Made by a program: the position numbers and the translations under genes. Below the pieces are notes generated by a model. That model made no database searches. It saw only the letters and a list, made by a program, of their open reading frames with translations, and was not told where the DNA came from. DNA of 24,000 nucleotides from the NCBI GenBank assembly GCA_963802265.1, contig CAWDIC010000007.1, positions 169,608 through 193,607 on the forward strand, read 5' to 3'. This stretch comes from an uncultured delta proteobacterium (GTDB lineage: Bacteria > Desulfobacterota > Desulfobacteria > Desulfobacterales > CAWDIC01). This document shows positions 2,211 to 22,143 of this stretch, piece by piece (the first letter of the stretch is position 1; the number at the start of each line of letters is the position of its first letter).

Positions 2211-2224
2211 ATAAAGGGCTTTTA

Positions 2225-2426
2225 TATCTCACAGAGACAGAGCACAGAGTTTTATTCGAATTTTTCAAAGAAGATTCAGATTTTAGCCCAATCTTCGCTT
2301 ATCCTTGTTTTATTATCAATATAACGTATTTTAATATATACGTTTTCCTGATTTTTCCTCTCAAAAAATCAGGAAAAGAACAATCTTTGTGATCTCTGTG
2401 GGCTCGAGCGAAGCGGGCGAGAGATA
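2225..2426. mobile_element. CTCTGTG-terminal inverted-repeat element, copy E1 (MITE-like)
   Basis: Left end: TA TCTC ACAGAG ACAGAG CACAGAG. Right end: hairpin 2343-2377 (loop CCTCTCA), then CTTTGTG at CTCTGTG GGCTCGAGCGAAGCGGGC GAGAGA TA. Confidence 0.7.
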
Positions 2427-3881: not shown

Positions 3882-3897
3882 AAAAAAGGTGTATACA

Positions 3898-4942
3898 ATG
3901 TCGTTTAAGTTTAAAAATGTATTGGTAACCGGAGCAGCAGGGTTCATTGGTTTTCACCTTTCGCTGCGACTGTTGAAAGAGGGTTACCAGGTAACAGGCC
4001 TGGACAACCTGAATGCCTATTATGACGTCAAGCTAAAGGAATCACGACTTGAACTACTCAAAAAGCACGACAAATTCAAGTTTCAAAAGGTCGACCTGGC
4101 CGACCTAAGCGAACTGGAAGCACTTTTTAAGGAGACAGAACTATGAAGTTGTCGTCAACATGGCGGCTCAGGCAGGCGTTCGCTATTCCCTAACGAACCC
4201 CCACGCCTATGTCGATGCCAATATTGTCGGTTTTGTGAATATTCTTGAATGCTGCCGTCATTCAGCGTCAAGCATCTGGTGTATGCGTCGTCCAGTTCCG
4301 TGTATGGCGCCAACACCAATATGCCGTTTTCGATTCACCACAATGTGGATCATCCGGTTTCCCTTTATGCGGCTTCCAAGAAAGCCAACGAACTCATGGC
4401 GCATACCTACAGCCACCTGTACAAGTTGCCATGTACCGGACTCAGGTTTTTTACGGTATATGGTCCATGGGGGCGTCCGGACATGGCGCTCTTTTTGTTT
4501 ACACGGGCCATTATCGAAGGCAAGCCCATCAAGGTTTTCAACCATGGCAAAATGCTGAGAGATTTTACCTACATCGATGACATCATCGAAGGCGTTTACC
4601 GCGTTATGCATAAACTCCCAGAGCCAAATTTATCGTGGAGCGGGTGATGCACCCGATCCGGGTACATCCTACGCCCCTTTCAAATTGTACAACATCGGGA
4701 ACAACAATCCCGTCGAACTTACTGAATTCATCGCAGCCATCGAGGAAACACTTGGCAAACAAGCCCAGAAAGAATACCTCGACTTGCAGCCAGGCGATGT
4801 GCCTGCCACTTATGCCGATGTCGACGATTTGATCAATGATGTTGGGTTTAAGCCGTCCACGCCGCTAAAAGTCGGGATCGCACGTTTCATCGAGTGGTAT
4901 GAGAATTACTATTCTTATAAAATCGTGAAACGATTTTATTGA
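3898..4942 (+). CDS. NAD-dependent epimerase/dehydratase (UDP-glucuronate 4-epimerase-like); three frameshifts
   Basis: Motifs seen: [14 protein letters not shown] Rossmann motif, [30 protein letters not shown] (YxxxK) and [14 protein letters not shown], spread over track ORFs 3889.., 4160.., 4249.. and 4577..4942. SD AAGGTG lies 7 nt before ATG 3898. Confidence 0.8.
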
Positions 4943-4958: not shown

Positions 4959-5063
4959 TATTTGACTGATTAAAAAATTTTTTAGTTCGGACAGCCTTGA
5001 AGGCTTATCAGTGTTTTACAAGATCTACAGGGTTTCAGTTCTTACGGGCTTTTGAAGGTGCAT

Positions 5064-5103
5064 AGCGACAGTCGCATTAAATAAAATCGCATAGCGATTT
5101 TAT
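5064..5103 (+). repeat. DH element, copy 5
   Basis: A GCGAC a GTCGC attaa ATAAAATCG catag CGATTTTAT. It lies 54 nt upstream of the leader-peptide ATG and is inverted relative to copy 4, about 105 bp away. Confidence 0.85.
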
Positions 5104-5156
5104 ATTAACATGATCAGGGTTTTCATAGAATACCTTGAAATTAAAGGATTAATATT

Positions 5157-5204
5157 ATGAATAATTTTTCGGGCAATTATTATTTTTATTACTGGCTACT
5201 ATAA
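5157..5204 (+). CDS. Candidate leader peptide MNNFSGNYYFYYWLL (15 codons, 7 aromatic, 6 consecutive)
   Basis: ATG 5157 is preceded by AAGGA (5144-5148) at 8-nt spacing. Codons read AAT AAT TTT TCG GGC AAT TAT TAT TTT TAT TAC TGG CTA CTA TAA. It is followed by alternative helices and a terminator, and lies upstream of the DAHP synthase gene. Confidence 0.55.
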   Translation: MNNFSGNYYFYYWLL

Positions 5205-5253
5205 TACCGGTTTGCCCGAAGTGCGCTGATACAAGCAAAAACAACTAAGAATT

Positions 5254-5296
5254 AAAAGCCGTGGCAAACTAAAAACTGCCACGGCTTTTTTTTTTT
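5254..5296 (+). terminator. Intrinsic terminator (attenuator 3:4 helix)
   Basis: GCCGTGGCA (5258-5266) pairs with TGCCACGGC (5277-5285) around a 10-nt loop. An A-run precedes it and 11 consecutive T (5286-5296) follow. Confidence 0.75.
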
Positions 5297-5349
5297 CGCA
5301 TAGAAAACTGTACAAGCTGATAGGTGAAATGGTTAATTGTAGGTGGAGT

Positions 5350-5591
5350 TATCTCTCGCCCGCTCCGCTCGAGCTCGCAGAGTTCTCAGAGTTTTTCATT
5401 TTGCTGATTTTTTGAGAGGAAAAATCAGTAAAAAATAATTTTAACTATATGTTGCAGTAAAATTAGACTTTTTTGTGGCTTTTCGATACTTTAATTAACC
5501 AGATGATAACATGTGATGATTTATTGAGAATCCTCCTCTCAAGGATTCTCAATTAATATTCTCTGTGGCTCTGTGATCTCTGTGAGAGATA
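5350..5591. mobile_element. CTCTGTG-TIR element, copy E2
   Basis: Left: TA TCTCTC GCCCGCTCCGCTCGAGC t CGCAGAG tt CTCAGAG, then hairpin 5404-5428 (loop TGAGAGG). Right: hairpin 5524-5552 (loop CCTCTCA), then CTCTGTG g CTCTGTG at CTCTGTG AGAGA TA. It ends 31 nt before the aroG ATG. Confidence 0.75.
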
Positions 5592-5622
5592 ATCATAAAA
5601 ACATGGGTGAGGGACAACGACA

Positions 5623-6708
5623 ATGAAACAGACACAGGACCTTCGGGTCAGGGACTATAAGAATTTGATGAGCCCGAGAGAACTGGAAAAGACACTTCCA
5701 ATGACGACCGAAGCCAACGAGACTGTCGTTGAGGGACGCAAGGCAATTGAGGACATACTGGCACGCAAAGATAAGCGCCTCCTGGTTATTACAGGCCCTT
5801 GTTCGATCCACGATGAAAAGGCAGCCTTTGAATATGCTGAAAAATTGTGCGATTTGAAGAAAAGGGTCGAAAAAACACTTTGCGTGGTCATGCGGGTCTA
5901 TTTCGAAAAACCACGTACAACGGTTGGGTGGAAAGGCATGATCAATGATCCTTATTTGGATGGCACCTGCGACATGACCGAAGGGTTGGTAAAAGCTCGC
6001 CAGATATTACTAAAAATCACCGAAATGGGAATACCAACAGCAACGGAATTGCTGGAGACCATCACACCGCAATATGTTGCCGACCTGGTGTGCTGGGCTG
6101 CCATCGGGGCACGTACAACCGAATCGCAGACCCATCGGGAGATGGCAAGCGGTCTGTCTATGACGGTAGGGTTTAAAAACGGTACGGACGGGAACCTTGA
6201 CACTGCCATCAACGCCATGCTCGCCGCGCGTGCCCCCCAAAGTTTTTTAGGAATAGATCCTGAAGGCCTGACAAGTATCGTAAATACAAATGGTAATCCG
6301 TCTGGGCATATTGTACTGCGAGGAGGTAAACATCCCAATTACGATTCTCGCAGCATCGAGGAAGCACGTATGGAGCTCATCGGTAAAAATTTGCCGGATA
6401 CGATTATGGTCGACTGCTCCCACGCCAATTCCAAAAAGAAATTTCAAGGCCAGGCACTTGTGTGGAAAAACATCATCGATCAGCGCATCAACGGGAATGA
6501 TGCCATCATCGGTATGATGATGGAGAGCAATTTATTCGAAGGAAACCAGAAATACAATGGTGATGCTTCGGCTTTGAAGTACGGCGTATCGATTACAGAC
6601 GAGTGCATTTCATGGGAAACAACCGAAAGCTTGCTGCTATATGCACATGAGAAACTGGCAAACCGTACCAACCGGTCAATAGGACTGAGGACGCAGAGGA
6701 CTAAGTAA
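5623..6708 (+). CDS. aroG: 3-deoxy-D-arabino-heptulosonate-7-phosphate synthase, class I (AroF/G/H type)
   Basis: Track ORF has the hallmarks [38 protein letters not shown] and VDCSHANS. The last ~10 codons (IGLRTQRTK) are encoded by a GGACTNAG repeat array. Confidence 0.9.
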
Positions 6709-6764
6709 ATTTACGGCCTTGGAACCGCGGTCCGCAAGCAAAAGAAAACTCAGTCCATAAGTCC
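6681..6764. repeat. GGACTNAG octamer triplet and its inverted partner around the aroG stop
   Basis: AGGACTGAG GACGCAGA GGACTAAG (6681-6705), then stop, then ACTCAGTCC ATAAGTCC (6748-6764). GGAACCGCGGTCC lies in between. Confidence 0.65.
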
Positions 6765-6787
6765 TAATAACTAAATCCTTATTGATG

Positions 6788-6843
6788 TCCTTGAGCATCC
6801 TCTTGCTCAAGGATTCTCTAATAAATACGTCTGTGACTCTGTC
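6788..6843 (+). repeat. Half element E4 (right-end type)
   Basis: Hairpin TCCTTGAGCA tcctct TGCTCAAGGA (6788-6813), then GTCTGTG a CTCTGTC. It lies 19 nt upstream of the CM-aroE ATG. Confidence 0.6.
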
Positions 6844-6861
6844 AACTTTGATAGCTAAAGT

Positions 6862-7979
6862 ATGCAAACAAAGCAAAAACCCAACATCGGCGTGCTTCGA
6901 GATGAGATTGACGCCATCGACAAGCAGATTCTCGAGTTGATCAACCAGCGTATTTCGATTGCCGTTGAAATTGGAAAGGCCAAAGAGCAGAGCGGCACCC
7001 AGGTTGTCGACAATGCCCGTGAGCTCGCTTTAATCAAGCGGCTTTTAGAGCTCAATAAGGGTCTTTTGAAAAACAGCGCTTTGCGCCGTATTTTCCATGA
7101 TATCATTACAGCATCGCGTGAAGCCCAAAGAGCGGAGGCAACGCCAAGCCTCGGCCCTGATTCCCAAGCCCTTTTCTGTGTTTTCGGTGATCCGGTTGGT
7201 CACAGTCTCAGCCCGGTAATGCACAACAGTGCTTTTGCTTACACAGGCTACAATGGCCTTTACATGGCATTCAAGGTGAGCGACATCTCCCAGGCGATTG
7301 CCGGTATGCGTGTATTGGGAATCAAAGGCGCCAGCATTACGATCCCGCACAAGATTAATGTAATGGGCCAAATAGATGAAATCGACGATATGGCCAAGGA
7401 TATTGGTGCAGTGAATACTGTCGTCAACCAGAATGGCGTTTTACGAGGCTTCAACACGGACTGTCATGGCGCAACTGCGGCATTGTTGAAGCAAACTAAA
7501 ATAGCCAACCGTAGCGTAGCGATTTTCGGCGCAGGAGGGGCGGCCAGGGCGATCGGTTTTGGTATCGTTGCCGAGAGTGGCAAGGTAACAATCTATAACC
7601 GATCTAAAGACAAAGGCGAGGCCCTTGCAAAAGCATTGAATGCAAATTTTTATCCATTATCAGAGATTAAGCAGTTAGAATGCGACATATTGATCAATAC
7701 GACTTCTGTAGGTATGTCACCCCATGTGCAGGCAACTCCAATTCCGGGAAAACTGTTGAAAAAAGAAATGGTCGTCATGGACATCGTCTACAACCCCATC
7801 CAAACGCGTTTCTTAAAGGACGCTAAAAGGCAGCTGGATGCACGGTAATCGAAGGAGTCGACATGTTCGTTTATCAGGGCGCCTCCCAGTTCGAACTGTG
7901 GACCGGTAAAAAAGCTCCGGTGCAGGTAATGAAAAAAGCAGTCTTGGATGCAATAAATAAAAATGAGCGCGGTGAATAG
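6862..7979 (+). CDS. aroE: Chorismate mutase (AroQ class) fused to shikimate 5-dehydrogenase; one -1 frameshift near 7829-7830
   Basis: The N-terminal ~90 aa read LRDEIDAIDKQILELINQRISIAVEIGKAKE...ELALIKRLLELNKG (CM type 2). Then comes FCVFGDPVGHSLSPVMHNSAF...SITIPHK...NTD...IFGAGGAARA (AroE). The C-terminus continues in another frame as AAGCTVIEGVDMFVYQGASQFELWTGKKAP up to TAG 7977-7979. Confidence 0.85.
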
Positions 7980-7993
7980 TAGGATGGTTTTTA

Positions 7994-8209
7994 TATCTCT
8001 CGCCCGCTTCGCTCGAGCCCGCAGAGCTCTCAGAGATACATTATAGTTGCCTGATTTTGAGAGGAAAAATCAGGCCAACAAATAAGATCTTAGAACATTG
8101 TATGCTCGATAGGCAAGAAGCGATACCGAAGGTGAGCTATAAAATCAGAATCTTCCCCTCAAAGATTCTGAAAAATAACTCTGTGCCTCTGTGGTCTCTG
8201 TGAGAAATA
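7994..8209. mobile_element. CTCTGTG-TIR element, copy E3
   Basis: Left: TA TCTCTC GCCCGCTTCGCTCGAGC c CGCAGAG ct CTCAGAG, then hairpin 8050-8074 (loop GAGAGGA). Right: hairpin 8145-8171 (loop CCCCTCA), then CTCTGTG c CTCTGTG gt CTCTGTG AGAAA TA. Confidence 0.75.
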
Positions 8210-8221
8210 ATAATTCTACTT

Positions 8222-8262
8222 AAGCGACACGGTCCTCATATAAAATTAGTGGAGCATTTTAT
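8222..8262 (+). repeat. DH element, copy 14 (degenerate), carries the aroA SD and start
   Basis: AA GCGAC acg GTCct cat ATAAAATta GTGGAG cATTTTAT G. Compare copy 10. Confidence 0.6.
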
Positions 8263-9527
8263 GTATCAAGTCAAAACACAGCCAATTAAAAATACGACCA
8301 TAACCGTTCCCGGGTCCAAAAGCTTCACCCATCGTTTCCTGATCTCTGCGGCGCTGGCAGATGGACAAAGCACTCTGAAAAACTGCCTTCACAGTGAAGA
8401 CACCACTTATACGATGTCCGCTTTACAACAAATGGGAGTCGCCCATAAAAAACAGGGCCAATCGGTTGTTGTTGAAGGCACGAGCGGAGATTTAAGTGCA
8501 CCTGCCGAGCCGATATACCTTGGCAACTCCGGTACATCCATGCGGTTGTTGACAGCTTTGGCAGCCATAAGCAATGGGAAACATGTTTTGACGGGCACAG
8601 AGCGTATGTGTCAGCGTCCTATTGGTGATTTGATCGAAGCGCTTACGCAGATAGGCATCGATGCCCACTCGAAAAATGGGGATGGTTGTCCTCCGGTTGA
8701 AATCAAAGGCGGGCAGCTTGCCGGCGGTAAAGTCGATCTGAATTGCAAAACCAGCAGCCAGTTTCTTTCCGCTCTGTTGTTGATTGCGCCTTATACGACC
8801 GAGGGACTCGATATTCACGTGATCGAGGGGCCGGTATCAAAGCCGTATATCGACATGACGATCCAAACCATGGGCAAATTGGGCGTCGATGTTGATAGCG
8901 AAGGATATCAAAAATATTTTGTCCAGGGGGGGCAGAAATATCAGGCCGGTGAATATTTCGTTGAAGCCTGATTGCTCCCAGGCCAGTTACTTCTGGGCGG
9001 CCGCAGCGATTACCGGTGCTTCGATTAAAATTGAAGGCATTCAACAGGATTCTATCCAAGGTGATGTCCGGTTGGTTGAAATTTTTAGGGCAATGGGGTG
9101 TGATGTGTTTCCGGAATCTGATGGTATCAGGGTTACAGGTGAACCTCTTCGAGCTGTCCGGGTCGATATGTCCGACATGCCGGATATGGTGCCGACGCTT
9201 GCGGTAGTCGCAGCCTTCGCCAAAGGGACAACCGTGATCGAAAACGTTGCCCATTTAAAAGCCAAAGAGAGCGATCGTATCGCATCGGTGGCCAACGAGT
9301 TGGAAAAAATGGGCATCCATGTCAAAAGGGCAGGGGATGGTTTGAGCATCAAAGGAGGAAACCCGAAAGGCGCTGAAATAGACACCTACGACGATCACCG
9401 CATCGCCATGAGCTTTGCCGTGGCAGGCCTTAAAACACCTGGTGTCGTTATAAAAAACGAAGATTGCGTTAAAAAGTCCTTCCCTAATTTCTGGCGGGTC
9501 TTTGAGACCCTATATAAAATCGCTTAA
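8261..9527 (+). CDS. aroA: 3-phosphoshikimate 1-carboxyvinyltransferase (EPSP synthase); one +1 frameshift near 8966-8968
   Basis: Motifs: VPGSKSFTHRFLISAALA, LGNSGTSMRLL, then after the shift PDCSQASYFWAAAAITG, KESDRI and DDHRIAMSFAVAG. GGAG lies 6 nt before ATG 8261. Confidence 0.9.
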
Positions 9528-9557
9528 CGATTTTATATTTGGCGCGACTTCGTCGCT
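9514..9557 (-). repeat. DH element, copy 6
   Basis: ATAAAATCG cttaa CGATTTTAT atttggc GCGAC ttc GTCGC t. It encodes the last aroA codons (LYKIA stop). Confidence 0.85.
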
Positions 9558-9603
9558 TAATTCAACTCACATATGAAAATAATTTAATTTGAAAATATTA
9601 TAT

Positions 9604-10209
9604 ATGAACATTTATTTGGTCGGATATCGCGGTTCCGGTAAAACGACTTTAGGTAAATCTTTGGCGGCCAGGATCGGTTGGCGTTTCATAGACTCAGACG
9701 ATGAAATTATAAAATCATCAGGAATGACAATTCGCGAAATGGTTGATAGCGAAGGATGGAGCGTATTCCGCGAACGGGAATGCAGAATGATAGAGCTAAT
9801 TGCCGGTATACAAAAATGCGTTGTTGCAACCGGCGGCGGTGCAGTGCTAAATCCCGGAAATATTTCTAAAATAAAAGCCAGCGGTAAAGTAATATGGTTG
9901 AAAACCAATCCGGAAACGATAAAAGCAAGGCTTTTAAAAGATACCAACACGAAAGAGCTTAGACCCTCGCTAACTGAGAAGGATTTTGATACAGAAATTG
10001 TAGAAACCCTGAAAGAACGCGAACCTCTATATAAAAAAGCCATGGATGTTGAAATCGATACGGACAATATAGATATTGATAATCTATGTGATAACTATTT
10101 TAACCACATTAGAAATATCAAAATCATCCTAAGATATTTTAGATTTTCCTTTTTCTTCCCTCTCAAAAGAAAAGGAAAAAAACTCTGTGACGCTGTGAGA
10201 GATGTTTGA
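9604..10209 (+). CDS. aroK: Shikimate kinase; the C-terminal ~25 codons read through a repeat element
   Basis: Reads MNIYLVGYRGSGKTTLGKSLA (P-loop), DSD, ATGGGAV. The tail ...IKIILRYFRFSFFFPLKRKGKKLCDAVRDV is encoded by half-element 10144-10203, so the true stop may lie earlier. Confidence 0.85.
   Translation: MNIYLVGYRGSGKTTLGKSLAARIGWRFIDSDDEIIKSSGMTIREMVDSEGWSVFRERECRMIELIAGIQKCVVATGGGAVLNPGNISKIKASGKVIWLKTNPETIKARLLKDTNTKELRPSLTEKDFDTEIVETLKEREPLYKKAMDVEIDTDNIDIDNLCDNYFNHIRNIKIILRYFRFSFFFPLKRKGKKLCDAVRDV
10144..10203 (+). repeat. Half element E5 (right-end type)
   Basis: Hairpin TTTTCCTTTT(T)CTT ccctctc AAAAGAAAAGGAAAA, then CTCTGTG a CGCTGTG AGAGAT. It lies inside the 3' tail of the aroK ORF. 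Confidence 0.6.
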
Positions 10210-10240
10210 TCATCGACTTCAACCCATCGACTCACTGTCA

Positions 10241-10316
10241 GTAACTGGCCAACTGGTTAACCGGTTAAACTGGCTAACTGATAACAGCAACGGACAACCG
10301 ACGACAAACAACTAAC
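10241..10316 (+). repeat. AACTGGCN octamer array followed by a GGACAAC/CA-rich array (aroC leader)
   Basis: GTAACTGGCC AACTGGTT AACCGGTT AAACTGGCT AACTGATA ACAGCAAC GGACAACC GACGACAA ACAACTAAC. It ends 20 nt before the aroC ATG. Confidence 0.8.
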
Positions 10317-10335
10317 ATTATATGGAGCATTATAC

Positions 10336-11424
10336 ATGTCCAGCACTTTCGGTACATTATTTAGAGTTACAACATTCGGCGAATCACATTCCAAAGGTGT
10401 CGGGCGTTATCCTCGATGGCTGTCCTCCCAAGATGTCGCTAAGCGAAGACGATATTCAACCTCAGCTCGATCGCCGCCGCCCTGGACAGAGCAAATTGAC
10501 GACTGAGACGAAGCGAAGCGGATCGTGTCACCATTTTATCCGGGGTTGAAAACGGTAAAACGTTTGGGACACCCATAGGCATGTTTGTGCCCAACAAGGA
10601 TCATCGACCAGGCGATTACAAGGCCATGCAGGATATACCGCGTCCGTCCCATGCGGATTATACCTATCAGATGAAATACGGAATTCGGCCGTCCAGCGGG
10701 GGAGGGCGGTCGAGCGCCAGAGAGACAATCGGCCGGGTTGCCGCTGGCGCCATTGCTGAGAAGATTCTTTTTGAAAGAGCCGGTGTTGAGATTGTCGCAT
10801 GGGTGAGTTCCATCGGCGATATCGATGCCCACGGAATTGATATCGGAACAAATTACACGCCTGCAAGTCGATGAATCACCGGTTCGTTGTCCTGATCCTG
10901 AGATAACCGAAAAAATGGTGCGGAAGGTAAAGGAGGTAAAAGCAGCCTCCGATTCAGTGGGAGGTATTGTATCGTGTGTTTGTCGATTTGTTCCACCTGG
11001 TTTGGGTGAACCGGTTTTCGATAAAATGGAAGCCAAGCTGGCCCATGCCATGTTGTCGATTCCTGCAACCAAGGGATTTGAAATAGGTTCCGGTTTCGCT
11101 GGATCCAGAATGCACGGATCCGAGCACAATGATCCGTTTATGAAAAAGGGGGGTGGGTTAGGGACCGTGACCAATTTTAGCGGCGGCATACAGGGAGGCA
11201 TTACAAATGGTGAGCCGATCGTATTTCGAGTGGCATTCAAACCCCCGGCAACAATTGGACTTGCCCAGCAGACCGTTGACTTTGAGGGCCAACAAGTAAC
11301 CCTGGAAGCCAAAGGCCGCCACGACCCCTGTGTCGTCCCAAGAGCCGTCCCAATCGTAGAGGCGATGGCAGCTTTAGTCTTATGCGACATGTTTTTAATC
11401 CAAGCCACAAGAAGTCACAAATGA
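10336..11424 (+). CDS. aroC: Chorismate synthase; three +1 frameshifts (10402-10404, 10520-10521, about 10840-10870)
   Basis: ATG 10336 gives [23 protein letters not shown]. It continues as [33 protein letters not shown], then [33 protein letters not shown]...RPSHADYTY..., then VRCPD...[13 protein letters not shown]...[18 protein letters not shown]. Confidence 0.85.
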
Positions 11425-11459
11425 AACAAAATTAAAAAAGATTTAGAATTTTTAGAATA

Positions 11460-11489
11460 TTTTTCCTCTGTCAAGCGACAGTGGAAAAA
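11460..11489 (+). other. Strong intercistronic hairpin between aroC and tyrA
   Basis: TTTTTCC-t-CTGTC aagc GACAG-t-GGAAAAA, followed by a T-rich tract. It could be an internal attenuator or an RNA stabiliser. Confidence 0.4.
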
Positions 11490-11542
11490 ATTTTTGATTA
11501 TTTTGTGCTTTTTTGCGGCTAAAAGAAAAGAGCTTTAAACCA

Positions 11543-12289
11543 ATGAAACCAAACAACAAGCCAACCATAGGGATAATTGGATTTGGCCGTTTCGGCAAAC
11601 TGATGGCACGGTATCTTGCCGAGGATTTTAAGGTCGTCGTCTATAACCGAACTGATAAATCAGCGGCAATTAAAGAAATCGGAGCAAACCCAGCATCGCT
11701 GTCATCGGTGTGTAACCAGGATATTGTTATCGTAAGCGTACCCATATCGACCATGCAAACGGTGTTGAGAGAAATTTCGCCCTTACTCAAGCCCGATGCC
11801 TTGGTGGTCGATGTTTGTTCGGTCAAGGTATATCCGACGCAATGGATGAAAGATGCACTCCCGGAAACAGTTTCAATCCTGGCAACACATCCCATGTTTG
11901 GTCCGGACAGTGCAGGTGAAACGCTTAATGGCTCTAAAATATTCGTGAGCCCAGAGCGAATTACAGAAGATTGTTACATAAAGATAAAGAATTATCTTGA
12001 ATCTAAAGGTTTGCTTATTATTGAAGGCACACCAGAGGAACATGATCAACAGATTGCTGTCAGTCTTTCATTGACCCATTTTATCGGCCGTGCATTGTCC
12101 AGCTTCGGAGCGGCACCCCTGAATATCGATACCGAGGGATATAAAAGACTATTGCACATCCTAGAGGTGGTTCAAAACGACACCTGGCAGCTTTTCATGG
12201 ACATGAACCGCTATAATCCTTATGCTGCTGAAAATCGTAAGGCGTTTATGGATGCGATGAAAGCAATCGATGCGAAACTGAAAGTGTAA
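11543..12289 (+). CDS. tyrA: Prephenate/arogenate dehydrogenase
   Basis: IGIIGFGRFGKLMARYL dinucleotide fold, DVCSVK, THPMFGP. An alternative TTG start at 11513 is possible. Confidence 0.8.
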   Translation: MKPNNKPTIGIIGFGRFGKLMARYLAEDFKVVVYNRTDKSAAIKEIGANPASLSSVCNQDIVIVSVPISTMQTVLREISPLLKPDALVVDVCSVKVYPTQWMKDALPETVSILATHPMFGPDSAGETLNGSKIFVSPERITEDCYIKIKNYLESKGLLIIEGTPEEHDQQIAVSLSLTHFIGRALSSFGAAPLNIDTEGYKRLLHILEVVQNDTWQLFMDMNRYNPYAAENRKAFMDAMKAIDAKLKV

Positions 12290-12461
12290 TTTATCACCGC
12301 CCGTCTCGTAACAGCGATAGCTGCGGATAAAATTTTAATCGCTGCTACTTATTCAGGCAGCACTATTTAAAGTAATAAAACTTTTAAATCTTTGCAGCAA
12401 TTCTGTTACGTGCTCTTGCGTCGAATAAATAAAAACACAATTTCTTAAAGGAACAATAACA

Positions 12462-12906
12462 ATGTCTAAAAATAAAAAAATCTTGGTCATCCACGGTCCC
12501 AAATCTGAACATGCTCGGTACACGCGAACCCGATATTTATGGCAACATGACTCTCGCCGAGATCGATGCCAAACTGCTAAAAATCGGAGAGACACTCGGG
12601 ATAACCGTAGAAACATTTCAGTCCAATCACGAGGGAGCTATCGTAGACAAGATCCAGGAAGCTGTTGGAAATTGTCAAGGTCTGATTATCAATCCTGCAG
12701 CATACACTCACACCAGTATCGCCATCCGCGATGCCCTCCTTTTACTCGATGTCCCAATCATCGAGGTCCATCTTTCAAACGTTTACAAAAGAGAATCCTT
12801 CCGGCACAAATCGATGATATCAGACATCGTAACAGCTAAAATGGTAGGTTTCGGCGCAAATGGGTATTTTTTAGCAATTGAGGCGATAAGTCAGTTGGCC
12901 AGTTAA
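12462..12906 (+). CDS. aroQ: 3-dehydroquinate dehydratase, type II; one +1 frameshift in the AAA run at 12501-12503
   Basis: MSKNKKILVIHGP joins NLNMLGTREPDIYG after removing one A. Then come FQSNHEGAIVDKIQEA, IINPAAYTHTSIAIRDA and IEVHLSNV. Confidence 0.85.
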
Positions 12907-13098: not shown

Positions 13099-13112
13099 TG
13101 GAGGTGATAAAA

Positions 13113-13355
13113 ATGGCAGCTTCAAAAATAGCAATTACAATTGATGATAGAATGTTGAAACAGCTTGATATATTAGTCAAATCAAAGTTTTTTCCAAACC
13201 GCAGCAAGGCTATTCAACAGGCTGTTGCCGAGAAACTGATGCGTCTTGAAAAGAACCGTTTATCTCAAGAATGTGCAAAACTTGATCCAGCATTCGAGCA
13301 ATCCATTGCAGAAGAGGGCTTTTCAACGGAGATAGAAGAATGGCCAGAATATTAA
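13113..13355 (+). CDS. Ribbon-helix-helix (CopG/MazE-like) antitoxin
   Basis: The N-terminus [34 protein letters not shown] is typical RHH, with an acidic C-terminal tail. GGAGGTG lies 6 nt upstream. It overlaps the toxin start by 16 nt. Confidence 0.75.
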
Positions 13356-13678
13356 GAGGAGGAATTTATTGGGCCGATCTAAACCCTGTTATTGGAAGTG
13401 AGCAGGGCGGTCTACGCCCCGTTCTTGTTTTGAGCCAGAATGTTTTTAATGAGCGATCCGGCACAGTCATTGCCGTTGCATTAACGAGTCAACCGCAAAG
13501 AGCAGGATACCCTCTTACATTGGAAATTGAAAACGATGAGCTTCCCAAGAAGTCATGGGTTAAGATCAGTCAAATTCGAACGCTTTCTGTAAAGCGCATA
13601 CAAAAAAAAATTACGAAAGCATCTGAAAAAGATATTGCTCTTGTTATAGAAGGACTAAACGAAATACTTGGCGCTTAA
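13340..13678 (+). CDS. mazF: MazF/PemK-family endoribonuclease toxin
   Basis: [45 protein letters not shown]... matches the PemK/MazF fold pattern. It is 112 aa and translationally coupled to the antitoxin. Confidence 0.85.
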
Positions 13679-13944: not shown

Positions 13945-13973
13945 CTCAGTCCTGAGTCCTTAGCCCTCAGTCC
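13945..13973. repeat. Heptamer array CTCAGTCC TGAGTCC TTAGCCC TCAGTCC across the kinase stop codon
   Basis: Four 7-nt units are seen directly. The minus strand reads AGGACTGAGGGCTAAGGACTCAGGACTGAG and supplies the last codons (RTEG stop) of the hybrid kinase. Confidence 0.7.
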
Positions 13974-15907
13974 TTTTTGTTAAAAGTTCTTTAAGCTTAA
14001 ACGACAACTGCTTAATATTAAACGGCTTTTGAATAAACCCGTCACACCCTCGTTCCAAAATCGGAACCGCCTGGCCATTAACACTGTACCCACTGGACAA
14101 TAGCACTTTCACATTCGGGTCTATTTCTTTAAGGCGATCATAGACTTCGCCGCCATTTATATCCGGCATGATAATGTCCAAAATGACAAGATCGATTTTG
14201 GTGTGTTGCTTTTTAAAAATATCGATTGCGGTCGTGCCGTTGTGTGCGGTTATTACTTCATACCCTAGTTCATTCAGCATCTTTCCATTTACTTCGATAA
14301 TAACGGTTTCATCATCAACCAAAAGAATCGTACCGGATCCCTTAACGATTGCTGGCGTGAGGGCTTTCTCTTCTAATTTGGTTTCAACTTTTTTACCGGT
14401 GGTTACCGGCAGGAAAATATTAAAGGTTGTTCCTTTACCCTTGCTGCTGGTGAAGTTGATGATACCGTCGTGATTTTTTATAATGCCAAAGGCCGAGGCC
14501 AATCCCATGCCGGTCCCTTCGCCCATCTCTTTGGTTGTAAAAAAGGGTTCGAAGATACGCTGTTGAATCTCTTTTTCCATTCCAACGCCGGTGTCGTTTA
14601 CGGAAATTCTTACATAGCGGCCAGGTTTGGCATCATAGGTCTTGGTGAAGCTCTTTTTCAAGGAGACGTTTTCGGTTTCAATATAAACATCACCACCGCC
14701 AGGCATGGCTTGCCAGGCATTGAGGAACAAATTCATCAAGACTTGCTCGATCTGTCCCTGGTCAACTTCAACGGTCCAGATGTTTTCCTGGAAATTTTCG
14801 ATAATTCGAATTTCCTTTTTGGTGCGTTCAAACATGCGGGAAATTCTTTCGACCATTTCATTTAGACTGGTCGCTTTGACCATGTATTTCCCGCCGCGGG
14901 CAAACCCTAGCAACTGTTTGGTCAGTTTGGCCCCGCTCTCAACACAGCGCTCGATACTTTGCACTTCTTCATAAGTGGGTGAATCAGGCTCGAGATCCAA
15001 AAGCAGAAGGGATGTGTTTCCCTGGATTCCCATTAGTAAGTTATTGAAGTCATGAGCAATACCGCCAGCCAAGGTGCCGATCGCTTCCATTTTTTGGGCT
15101 TGCTGCAGCTGCAGTTCCAGTCGTCTTTGATCCGTTACATCGGCAATCATGATCATGTAAGTTTGTGTTTCACTTTTTACGGGGAAGACCTTGAGCGTCA
15201 CCTTCCTGTTGTTCAGATCCAGCGAAGAATCTCCTCCGATTTCGATGGCTTCCTTGATTGTGGATTGGAAAACATGCCTCGACTTAGTCTCGTAATTTAC
15301 CCTCAAACAGATCAGGTGGAAAAGAATATAGGATATCCTCCTGTGGTATCCCGATCATGGAGACCGCAACCGAGTTGGCATAAATCACGCGGTTGTCATA
15401 TATTTCAATAATACCCTCGGAAAGGCTTTCCAGAATGGTTTCCAGGTGATGTTTGCGGGAGAGCAACTCTTTGGTTAGCTGCCGGGCATAAATCGTTTCC
15501 AGGCCAATGACGGGTATGGGATCAGACTTTAATACGGGGCGATCGGATTCTTTAATGGCTTTTAAGACGTTCTCAGCCATCGTGTCGAACGATCCTTTGG
15601 CGATGCATGCATTGACCCCAATTTTGGCATGATCGATATCCAGTTCCGCCGCAGCCGCTGTGAAAAGGATTAAATAAGCGTCTTTCAATCCTTTTTTATT
15701 GCGTACAATTTGGCAGACCTTGTCTCCGTCAATTTTGGGCATAAACATGTCAATGAACATGATGTCCGGCGTGAATTCATCGATGATATCCATCGCCGCA
15801 AATCCATCCTGCGCCAGCCTGACATTGTGTCCTTCCTTGACCAGCGTCTTTTCCAAAAACTTCAGAACCAGCCGGTTGTCATCCACAACAATGATATTTT
15901 TCCCCAT
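13960..15907 (-). CDS. Hybrid sensor histidine kinase REC-PAS-HisKA-HATPase-REC; one frameshift near 15290-15305
   Basis: Track ORFs 15284..15907 (REC IIVVDDNRL...IMFIDMFMPKIDG plus the first PAS half) and 13960..15306 join across a single split PAS domain. The second ORF carries the second PAS half, the H-box GGIAHDFNNLL, the N/G boxes, and a C-terminal REC ILLVDDE...LVILDIIMPDINGGE. Confidence 0.85.
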
Positions 15908-21094: not shown

Positions 21095-22143
21095 TTATAC
21101 CTTCCGCCCAACACGCCCCGGCGGTCTAATATTCAAATCCGTAATTTTATATAGCAGTGTTTTATAACTAATTTTCAATATTTTGCTGGCCTTGCTCCGA
21201 TTCCAATCGGTCTTATCCAACACATAAGAAATAACCTCTTTTTCAACCTGGTCCACAGCAACCCGTTTGATTTTTTTCAAGGAAAAGGACTTGTTGTCAG
21301 GGGAATTTCGTCCTTCCAGGTCGATCATGTCGGAGATGCTGGCCTGTTTTTTCGATGGGTCTGACCGTCCGGTGTTATTTCTTCGGTTGTTTTAACGCTG
21401 GCTTCGAGTTCATTGACGATTTCATCATGATCTTCAAGAACCAACATTCTTTTTAAAATATTCTGAAGTTCCCGCACATTCCCCGGCCAGTGATAAGCCA
21501 TCAAGCGATCCATTATTGAAGGGCTAAGTTTAACCGGATTTTCGCGATTAAACTGGGAAGAATATTCTTTGGTGTAATAGTCGATCAAGCGGGGAATATC
21601 TTCAGGTCGTTCGCGTAAAGGTTGAATGTAAATTTTGATGATGTTTAGTCGGTAAAACAAATCCTCTCTAAATTTACCTTTTTCGATTTCTATTTCCAAA
21701 TCGTGATTGGTCGCGGCAATGACCCAGGTGTCGGTCGTGAATTCCTTCTCTGAACCTAAAGGCGCAAATTCACCGCTTTGCAGCACGTGCAAAAGTTTGG
21801 ATTGGAGCGGCAACGACATGTCACCGATTTCATCTAAAAATAAAACGCCTTTGTTGGCAAGTTCGAACTTCCCCCGTTTTTTCTGATCCGCACCTGTAAA
21901 AGCGCCCCGTTCATAACCAAACAGTTCACTTTCCAGCAATCCTTCAGGCAAGGCAGCGCAATTGATTTTAATGAACGGTTGCCCTTTGCGAGACGATTTG
22001 TGATAAAGCGTCTGGGCAACCACTTCTTTGCCAACACCGCTTTCACCATAAATAATGGTGTTCAACCCAGTATTGGCAACATGCTCAATAACTTCCTTTA
22101 TTTTTTCAATATTCTTACTTACACCAACAATCGGAGGCCCCAT
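21095..22143 (-). CDS. Sigma-54-dependent transcriptional activator, AAA+ plus Fis-type HTH only (no N-terminal regulatory domain); one frameshift about 21325
   Basis: It starts directly at IVGVSKNIEKIKEVIEHVA..IIYGESGVGKE (Walker A). Also present: GAFTGA loop (ERGAFTGA), LFLDEIG, FREDLFYRLN, WPGNVRELQN and a C-terminal HTH SKASKILKISYKTLLYKI. Confidence 0.85.

Follow-up and report, generated by a model that had tools for sequence, protein, structure and literature searches.

Ribosome-mediated attenuators of the Escherichia coli trpL and pheL type are built from four RNA segments that can pair as helices 1:2, 2:3 or 3:4, a leader open reading frame (ORF) whose codons include those of the end-product amino acid, and an intrinsic terminator. 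In these leaders the terminator is more stable than the antiterminator, and the decision between the two is kinetic. We analysed an element of the same architecture in a 24,000-nucleotide (nt) stretch of DNA from an uncultured delta proteobacterium of the Desulfobacterales (contig CAWDIC010000007.1, positions 169,608 to 193,607, forward strand), referred to below as the window. The element precedes a gene for a class I 3-deoxy-D-arabino-heptulosonate 7-phosphate (DAHP) synthase, the first gene of an aro operon. It is very probably a ribosome-mediated leader-peptide attenuator that couples expression of this operon to the charging of tRNA-Tyr, tRNA-Phe and, to a lesser extent, tRNA-Trp. The trpL and pheL leaders each use codons for one amino-acid type and control a terminal branch, whereas the leader described here mixes aromatic codons and stands ahead of the common pathway. 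The placement of the codons differs as well. The regulatory codons of trpL and pheL lie within segment 1, whereas here they occupy the loop that connects segment 1 to segment 2; in addition, the ORF of the family runs on through segment 2.

A leader with a Phe-Tyr-Phe triplet, aroR, is found upstream of the DAHP synthase gene aroF of Corynebacterium glutamicum and has been studied experimentally (Neshat et al. 2014, summarised in PMC11802643 and PMC7356990). Like the leader in the window, aroR places mixed aromatic codons ahead of a DAHP synthase gene. According to these reports, stalling at its Phe/Tyr codons leads to higher expression of the genes for the common aromatic pathway, and Tyr supply is reportedly without effect in C. 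glutamicum. The aroR leader has a single Phe-Tyr-Phe triplet, whereas the leaders described here contain 6-11 aromatic codons, often including Trp. Moreover, its host is an actinobacterium, in contrast to the present locus, which belongs to the Desulfobacterales and continues into a seven-gene aro operon. The likeness documented for aroR is a functional analogy.

Attenuators have also been predicted before aro/tyrA supraoperons in the Merino database, as tabulated in Song et al. 2005 (PMC1173090). Examples are Desulfovibrio vulgaris aroA'>aroB'>pheA>aroF>tyrA and Vibrio aroAI-alpha_Y>tyrA. Those predictions concern structure only, describe no leader peptide, and involve other first genes and other lineages; none is the element in the window. 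A reconstruction of delta-proteobacterial regulons (PMC545781) does not mention an aromatic attenuator. We found no published description of the leader family in delta-proteobacteria or Chloroflexi in the open full-text literature, which covers few subscription papers (neither Neshat 2014 nor Vitreschak 2004 among them). A first interpretation made from the letters of the window (the sequence-only reading) had presented a mixed aromatic leader ahead of the common-pathway genes as undescribed for this kind of genome. This was overstated, since aroR and the predicted supraoperon attenuators precede it. The mechanism is classical; what stands of the claim is that the conserved Desulfobacterales leader family is itself apparently uncatalogued.

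A search of the whole window against Rfam at gathering thresholds gave no match. In permissive mode, positions 5000-5700 matched His_leader (RF00514; 27.6 bits, gathering score 49), Thr_leader (RF00506; 21.3 bits, gathering score 55) and Phe_leader (RF01859; 17.5 bits, gathering score 55), all below the gathering score. Trp_leader is not among the matches listed in this permissive search of 5000-5700, and the T-box gave no match either at the gathering threshold or, over the same interval, at E <= 10. The best named-leader match is therefore the his leader of Salmonella and E. coli, but it is sub-threshold, so that the element is not a member of that family, and the his leader carries His codons. 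The his leader relays the position of the ribosome to a distal terminator through chained alternative helices and in this respect resembles the putative 2:3 / 4:5 relay across the tandem terminators of 9 of 13 relatives of the window element. The window itself, however, has a single terminator.

A conserved leader ORF with a run of aromatic codons

The features of the element are the following.

5143..5148, + strand: Shine-Dalgarno (SD) sequence AAAGGA (core AAGGA, 5144-5148), with a spacer of 8 nt to the leader ATG
5157..5204, + strand: leader ORF as sequenced, MNNFSGNYYFYYWLL and stop, 15 amino acids; the xxFSGN N-terminus and the aromatic run are common to 13 relatives
5167..5176, + strand: segment 1, TTTCGGGCAA, 5′ strand of the anti-antiterminator helix 1:2, codons 4-7 (minimum free energy (MFE) fold, covariation, RNAalifold)
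5178..5195, + strand: regulatory codon run TAT TAT TTT TAT TAC TGG (Tyr Tyr Phe Tyr Tyr Trp), in the loop separating segments 1 and 2
5196..5200, + strand: one-nucleotide insertion relative to all relatives (CTACT against CT-TT in L161), creating a premature TAA at 5202-5204
5206..5229, + strand: conserved continuation ACC GGT TTG CCC GAA GTG CGC TGA (TGLPEVR and stop), out of frame in the window and the in-frame leader end in all relatives
5207..5221, + strand: segment 2, CCGGTTTGCCCGAAG, partner of segment 1 (plus an inner ACUGG/CCGGU helix) or of segment 3 (folds, covariation)
5254..5296, + strand: intrinsic terminator (helix 3:4), stem AAAAGCCGTGGCA / TGCCACGGCTTTT, 13 base pairs, 10-nt loop, T11, -20.5 kcal/mol
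5258..5270, + strand: segment 3, GCCGTGGCAAACT, overlapping the 5′ arm of the terminator (nascent-RNA fold, family covariation)

Re-inspection of the sequence agreed with every coordinate of the sequence-only reading (SD, ORF, helices and terminator), including its 15-codon ORF with an SD at 8-nt spacing and six consecutive aromatic codons. The leader codons (5157-5204) are ATG AAT AAT TTT TCG GGC AAT TAT TAT TTT TAT TAC TGG CTA CTA TAA. When the 24-kb window is translated in all six frames, YYFYYW is the sole stretch of six aromatic residues out of six. Among 5000 shuffles that preserve the composition of the 680-nt spacer (36% GC), 15 contained such a run in any frame, and the run exceeds chance expectation.

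The element was compared with 13 relatives (L001, L081-L085, L161, L163-L168), which are metagenome-assembled genomes (MAGs) of Desulfobacterales/Desulfobacteraceae and metagenome contigs with enough upstream DNA and a DAHP synthase 66-89% identical to that of the window. A homologous element lies directly upstream of the DAHP synthase gene in all 13. A short aromatic ORF with a terminator, which the sequence-only reading had proposed to look for in orthologous regions, is thus found in every close relative compared. The shared features are an SD site and start codon, the N-terminal motif xxx[F/L/Y]SG[R/N]x, a run of F/Y/W residues, the C-terminal motif xTGLPGVR, a TGA stop and a terminator of the form AAAGCCGYGGGCAGA...CCCRCGGCTTTTT. 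Most relatives retain both the SD site and the start codon, and the alignment shows a purine-rich motif of the GGA/GAGG type at the equivalent position in most of them. The ORF of the family passes through segment 2 and ends at a nearly invariant GCGC-TGA. The gene 5′ of the leader varies among loci (epimerase, OsmC, acetyltransferase, META, SSF transporter, ATC hydrolase, chorismate-binding protein), and at some loci it lies on the opposite strand. Hence the hairpin does not act as the terminator of whatever gene precedes it.

Each leader contains 6-11 F/Y/W codons, in variable order and in runs of variable length; Tyr and Phe are always represented, and Trp in 9 of the 14 sequences. Conservation of the run in composition and not in order is the signature of codon-level sensing, which would point to selection on decoding rather than on a peptide or RNA motif. 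The conserved ends of the peptide coincide with helix strands and their third codon positions are fixed or covarying, indicating that the constraint acts at the RNA level. In particular, the stretch 5206-5229 is conserved at the nucleotide level, third codon positions included, and the third base of its Pro codon covaries with segment 1 (alignment column 94 with column 40).

Three mutually exclusive helices

The core of helix 1:2 is formed by TCGGGCAA (5169-5176), which is complementary to TTGCCCGA (5212-5219) and is extended by the pair T5168-A5220. Helix 2:3 is based on the complementarity of GTTTGCC (5210-5216) and GGCAAAC (5263-5269); in the complete antiterminator, GGCAAACT of segment 3 pairs with GGTTTGCC of segment 2. 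In the core of the terminator, GCCGTGGCA (5258-5266) pairs with TGCCACGGC (5277-5285), followed by T11 (5286-5296). The calculated energies of helices 1:2, 2:3 and 3:4 in the window are -16.6, -12.8 and -20.5 kcal/mol respectively. The unconstrained MFE fold of 5140-5300, an interval whose folding the sequence-only reading had suggested, consists of helix 1:2 and the terminator and has an energy of -43.7 kcal/mol. Shuffles of the same interval average -27.1 +/- 3.6 kcal/mol (z = -4.7), and none of 200 folds as well. Most folds also contain an inner hairpin, GCGCU...AGCGC, between segments 2 and 3, in a region where the alignment is too unreliable for pair counts. A consensus terminator scan lists the hairpin on the minus strand alone, the + strand loop (10 nt) exceeding its 8-nt limit; the T11 tract is on the + strand. 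The leader therefore displays each feature of ribosome-mediated attenuators that we looked for: an SD with a short ORF, a cluster of cognate codons, a terminator, an antiterminator sharing a strand with it, and a helix 1:2 overlapping the ORF.

The three helices are supported by conservation and covariation as well as by folding. In the 14-sequence alignment, 87.8% of the cells of helices 1:2 and 3:4 are paired, compared with 29-54% in slid controls. Nine pairs in these two helices show changes on both sides, five of the 11 pairs of helix 1:2 and four pairs of the terminator, against 4.1 +/- 1.2 in shuffles, of which 0/500 reach nine; such controls do not give strict probabilities when the sequences are related. 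In helix 2:3, the proportion of paired cells is 90.7% (22-49% in slid controls), four pairs have changed on both sides, and its covariation score is matched by 0/500 shuffles. The window is undercounted in this last comparison, because MAFFT offsets it by one column in helix 2:3 (its terminator arm carries GG in place of the GGG of the other sequences). Independently, the RNAalifold consensus consists of helix 1:2 and the terminator.

A covariance model built from the 14 sequences (R1) finds one copy in the window at 131 bits, a partly circular score as the window is one of the training sequences. In 1.19 Mb of other loci, the model retrieves the 13 relatives at 110-143 bits, the next best match scoring 32 bits. 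The window has all the features that define the family (SD, xxSG[RN], aromatic run, xTGLPGVR and stop, GCCGYGGGCAGA terminator and a class I DAHP synthase downstream), except that its C-terminal peptide is out of frame.

Proposed mechanism of the switch

Transcription would start shortly upstream of 5143, and a ribosome would load at the SD and ATG and translate the leader. The aromatic codons would then be read in a U-rich loop between segment 1 (5167-5176) and segment 2 (5207-5221). When aromatic aminoacyl-tRNAs are plentiful, the ribosome would reach the stop codon and occupy segment 2, so that segments 3 and 4 could pair once segment 4 has been made; RNA polymerase would then terminate at T11 (5286-5296). 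In the relatives the stop codon is a TGA just past segment 2, and in the window it is a TAA that precedes segment 2 by 6 nt; both positions would be expected to allow this. Without translation, helix 1:2 would form and helix 3:4 would again cause termination. When charging of the Tyr, Phe or Trp tRNAs is low, the ribosome would stall in the loop, cover or sterically separate segment 1, and leave segment 2 free. Free segment 2 would pair with segment 3 while segment 4 has yet to be made. The terminator could then not form, and the polymerase would read through the repeat element located downstream into the DAHP synthase gene and the rest of the operon. Since the codons fill the loop of helix 1:2, a stall anywhere in the aromatic run would keep this helix open.

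Folding simulations are compatible with this scheme. With segment 1 masked and segment 4 absent, an approximation of the co-transcriptional situation, helix 2:3 forms in 14/14 sequences. With a ribosome placed at the stop codon, the terminator alone remains in every simulation. The trp/pheA-type logic put forward in the sequence-only reading thus finds support in conservation, covariation and folding. Its proposal that a ribosome at the stop masks segment 2 also holds, and more strongly still for the full-length form of the leader.

Several observations weigh against the attenuator interpretation. When full-length RNA carrying a stalled-ribosome mask is folded to equilibrium, the terminator wins in 10/14 sequences and the antiterminator in 4/14. 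As the terminator mostly wins at equilibrium, the switch must be kinetic, and the model accordingly requires a kinetic decision between 2:3 and 3:4. The ordering of helix stabilities in the classical trp leader is similar. The 2:3 helix of the window (-12.8 kcal/mol) is moreover the weakest antiterminator of the family. The covariation controls are subject to the relatedness of the sequences, as mentioned above, and were applied to helices first defined on one aligned sequence. No + strand promoter was found upstream of the leader by a standard promoter scan, and TTAACA-15-TAGAAT, the best of the weak candidates from a relaxed scan, has a short spacer. The one-nucleotide insertion shortens the leader from about 23 to 15 residues and places the stop 8 codons earlier than in the family. 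Finally, a promoter-like sequence, TTGAGA-16-AATAAT, is present at 5412-5439 in the 327-nt insert that follows the terminator, and control could be partly bypassed. Taken with the evidence above, these points leave the leader-peptide attenuator as the reading that we favour.

A one-nucleotide insertion in the leader

In the closest informative relative (L161, with a DAHP synthase 89% identical), CTT-TATAATAACGG corresponds to CTACTATAATACCGG of the window. Removal of any one base within 5196-5200 gives MNNFSGNYYFYYW[L/Y]YNTGLPEVR followed by a stop, that is, the C-terminus of the family. In the window the out-of-frame C-terminal stretch is still near-identical in nucleotides to that of L161. 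The nearest relative, L162 (93% identical), has just 130 nt of upstream sequence and no bearing on the insertion. Regarding the end of the ORF, the sequence-only reading was right that a TAA is present at 5202-5204. However, the family ORF passes segment 2 to GCGC-TGA, and this TAA is a product of the insertion.

Single-base frame breaks also split three genes of the window: the epimerase (3889-4942), the 5-enolpyruvylshikimate-3-phosphate (EPSP) synthase (8249-9527, near 8966-8969) and the chorismate synthase (about 10300-11424). Because these frames are broken too, the insertion in the leader is probably an assembly error as well, judging from the sequence comparison. The broken genes suggest an error-prone assembly, gene decay being less likely. 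Programmed +1 frameshifting was considered as a means of reaching the out-of-frame C-terminus and was rejected: removal of any of five bases at one site restores the frame, and other genes are also broken.

Alternative explanations

The insertion and the repeat allow another view of the locus, in which the attenuator is ancestral but has been eroded or bypassed in this genome, the premature stop being real and the repeat carrying an attenuator-independent promoter for the DAHP synthase gene. Besides an insertion shared with no relative, this view can draw on the repeat of ~245 nt between the terminator and the gene, with its 10/12 promoter match at 5412-5439, on the weakness of the 2:3 helix, and on the broken frames of several aro genes. 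However, all RNA elements are intact, with 131 bits against the family model, and even with a genuine insertion segment 2 would be covered by a ribosome that has reached the TAA (5202-5204), which would leave the logic of the switch in place. The frame breaks affect essential genes, which suggests assembly error and not decay. The same repeat is found inside the operon at 7994-8212, where it is evidently transcribed through, and promoter-like matches in the region are at chance frequency (3 found against 3.2 expected). We therefore regard erosion or bypass as unlikely.

An additional role, compatible with attenuation, would be for the terminated leader transcript of about 150 nt to act in trans as a small RNA (sRNA), in the manner of rnTrpL of Sinorhizobium. 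Attenuator-derived sRNAs have a precedent (PMC6614838), and attenuation would yield a stable RNA with two hairpins and a terminator at its end. The leader shows no conservation beyond what the switch requires, which makes such a function distinctly unlikely.

A third view would give the ORF a function of its own, as a micropeptide (for instance a membrane peptide or the precursor of a modified peptide) equipped with its own terminator, the xTGLPGVR end reflecting peptide function. The termini xxSG[RN] and TGLPGVR are indeed conserved across relatives, but their residues map precisely onto the strands of helices 1:2 and 2:3. Third codon positions are either conserved or covary with the bases opposite them in the helices, and the centre is free to vary in length and in the order of F, Y and W. 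Nothing like a maturation or export gene is present among the genes called in the flanks (1.2 kb) of six relatives, where the gene downstream is invariably a DAHP synthase. The window has kept the nucleotides of the C-terminal codons, although these are out of frame. A functional micropeptide is thus very unlikely.

Taken alone, a terminator/antiterminator pair would fit many effectors, and a trans-acting factor could control termination, either an uncharged tRNA, as in the T-box type, or a TRAP- or PyrR-like RNA-binding protein. We consider this highly improbable: neither a T-box nor another Rfam family was found at threshold, repeated protein-binding triplets are not evident, and the SD, start codon, frame and aromatic run are conserved whereas the nucleotide order of the run is not, which is expected only if the codons are decoded.

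The notion of a chance ORF, with the hairpin serving as the terminator of the upstream epimerase gene, has a negligible probability, for although TAT and TTT codons are frequent in a spacer of 36% GC and the hairpin does lie downstream of a + strand gene ending at 4942, a run in AT-rich spacer of the kind that the sequence-only reading had itself feared occurs in 0.3% of shuffles, compensatory changes tie the ORF to the downstream segments, and ORF, helices and terminator recur in 13/13 relatives with unrelated and in some cases divergent upstream genes, by which this notion was already refuted.

Promoter, repeat and operon context

The remaining features around the leader and in the operon, the genes having been assigned by Pfam scans, are the following.

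5105..5131, + strand: candidate sigma-70-type promoter TTAACA-15 nt-TAGAAT, weak, start near 5138 (relaxed hexamer scan)
5350..5594, + strand: intergenic repeat (one copy, ~245 nt) lying between attenuator and DAHP synthase gene, with the promoter-like site 5412-5439 and an inverted repeat at 5519-5557
5623..6708, + strand: class I DAHP synthase (AroG/F/H type), 361 amino acids, first regulated gene (DAHP_synth_1, E = 1.5e-82)
6862-7848, + strand: chorismate mutase-shikimate dehydrogenase fusion (type II chorismate mutase domain)
8249-9527, + strand: EPSP synthase
9589-10209, + strand: shikimate kinase
about 10300-11424, + strand: chorismate synthase
11513-12289, + strand: prephenate dehydrogenase
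12511-12906, + strand: type II dehydroquinase

In the relatives, TTGACA-type boxes are found 60-70 nt upstream of the leaders. Upstream of the leader in the window is a fragmented gene of the NAD-dependent sugar epimerase/dehydratase type on the + strand, ending at 4942. All seven aro genes downstream (5623-12906) are on the + strand, and the scans bear out the aro supraoperon with DAHP synthase first that the sequence-only reading had seen. That reading was also correct in placing the leader ahead of common-pathway genes, but the leader does not precede them immediately. The distance from the terminator to the ATG of the DAHP synthase is 327 nt, compared with about 75-215 nt in the relatives, and this gap contains the inserted repeat. 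The chorismate mutase-shikimate dehydrogenase fusion is also found in at least one relative (L167, 3343 onward); in most relatives, dehydroquinate synthase follows DAHP synthase.

The repeat is missing at the corresponding position in L161 and L001. Further copies are present at 7994-8212 (+ strand), inside the aro operon, at 2221-2426 (- strand) and in L162 (1-40). Its core is TATCTCTCGCCCGCTYCGCTCGAGC, with a CCTGATTTTTTGAGAGGAAAAATCAGG hairpin and a GAATCYTCC...AGATTC inverted repeat. The 3′ end is rich in CTCTGTG and finishes with GAGAnATAAT just upstream of start codons.

A second repeated sequence, the palindrome AAAATCG-N5-CGATTTT, occurs 13 times in the 24 kb, against 0.41 expected. 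Copies are found at 2169, 4919, 5083, 9516, 13042, 16292, 17454, 17719 and other positions, several of them at or near ORF ends (4919, 9516, 17454), and the copy at 5083-5101 is just upstream of the candidate leader promoter. The palindrome could be a weak terminator-like or repetitive extragenic palindrome (REP)-like hairpin, or a protein-binding site.

Directly downstream of the aro operon, at 13104-13678 on the + strand, a ribbon-helix-helix antitoxin-like ORF is followed by an ORF for a PemK/MazF-family toxin. The minus strand (13960-15907 and 21325-22143) encodes a hybrid histidine kinase/response regulator, a PAS-domain response regulator and a fragment of a sigma-54 activator. These genes are consistent with the sigma-54 character ascribed to the genome in the sequence-only reading.

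Tandem terminators and distant leaders

Nine of the 13 relatives (L081, L082, L085, L163-L168) have two tandem terminators of similar sequence, 20-110 nt past the leader stop. An alternative 4:5 helix can form between terminator 1 (3′ arm and U-tract) and terminator 2 (A-tract and 5′ arm), with an energy of -15 to -22 kcal/mol (seven computed). In L164, segment 5 is a better match to segment 4 than to segment 6, its own partner. In this model the 4:5 helix would relay antitermination to the second terminator, thereby disabling both.

Short ORFs rich in aromatic residues (5-7 aromatics per 8-residue window; for example LYYGYWYFFTGW, NYFTYYYYF and QGFYYFNGFYF) are also found upstream of DAHP synthases 50-58% identical to that of the window. 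They occur at L008, L035, L051, L053, L076, L100, L104 and L109 (Dehalococcoidia/Chloroflexota or similar contigs), at L075 and L118, at L142, L143, L146 and L160, and at L087. Downstream of most of the distant ORFs is a GC-rich hairpin that carries a U-run, and R1 scores these leaders at 14-32 bits. Analogous leaders of this distant kind occur in Dehalococcoidia, in two gammaproteobacterial contigs and in others. Twelve of them were evaluated by nascent-RNA folding, and in 10 the terminator's 5′ arm paired with nucleotides immediately following the aromatic run. The distant leaders would be analogous attenuators, at best distantly related to the Desulfobacterales family.

We tentatively suggest, as a possibility that we consider doubtful at present, that the window element is one of a broad uncatalogued class of pan-aromatic attenuators that act at class I DAHP synthase and so gate the way into the shikimate pathway. 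Such a class might have arisen repeatedly or spread with the gene (Desulfobacterales, Dehalococcoidia, some Gammaproteobacteria and others). One leader would integrate the charging of the Tyr, Phe and Trp tRNAs, and most Desulfobacterales would relay the decision across two terminators.

Significance

The leader family constitutes a well-defined RNA family that is absent from Rfam, with 14 sequences, three covarying helices and a covariance model. The leader is currently unannotated or miscalled, and its recognition would improve the annotation of MAGs. Two points are specific to the genome analysed here, a probable sequencing indel in the leader and the insertion of a repeat between the attenuator and its target. 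The element is also a natural and compact sensor of aromatic amino-acid supply that may serve in engineering. The occurrence of similar leaders before DAHP synthase genes in several phyla suggests that the literature understates how common attenuation is at the entry point of the shikimate pathway. E. coli controls the committed step of aromatic synthesis by repressor proteins. In contrast, this leader is probably how an uncultured group resembling sulfate reducers controls that step, through a single translational sensor for Tyr and Phe and often Trp.

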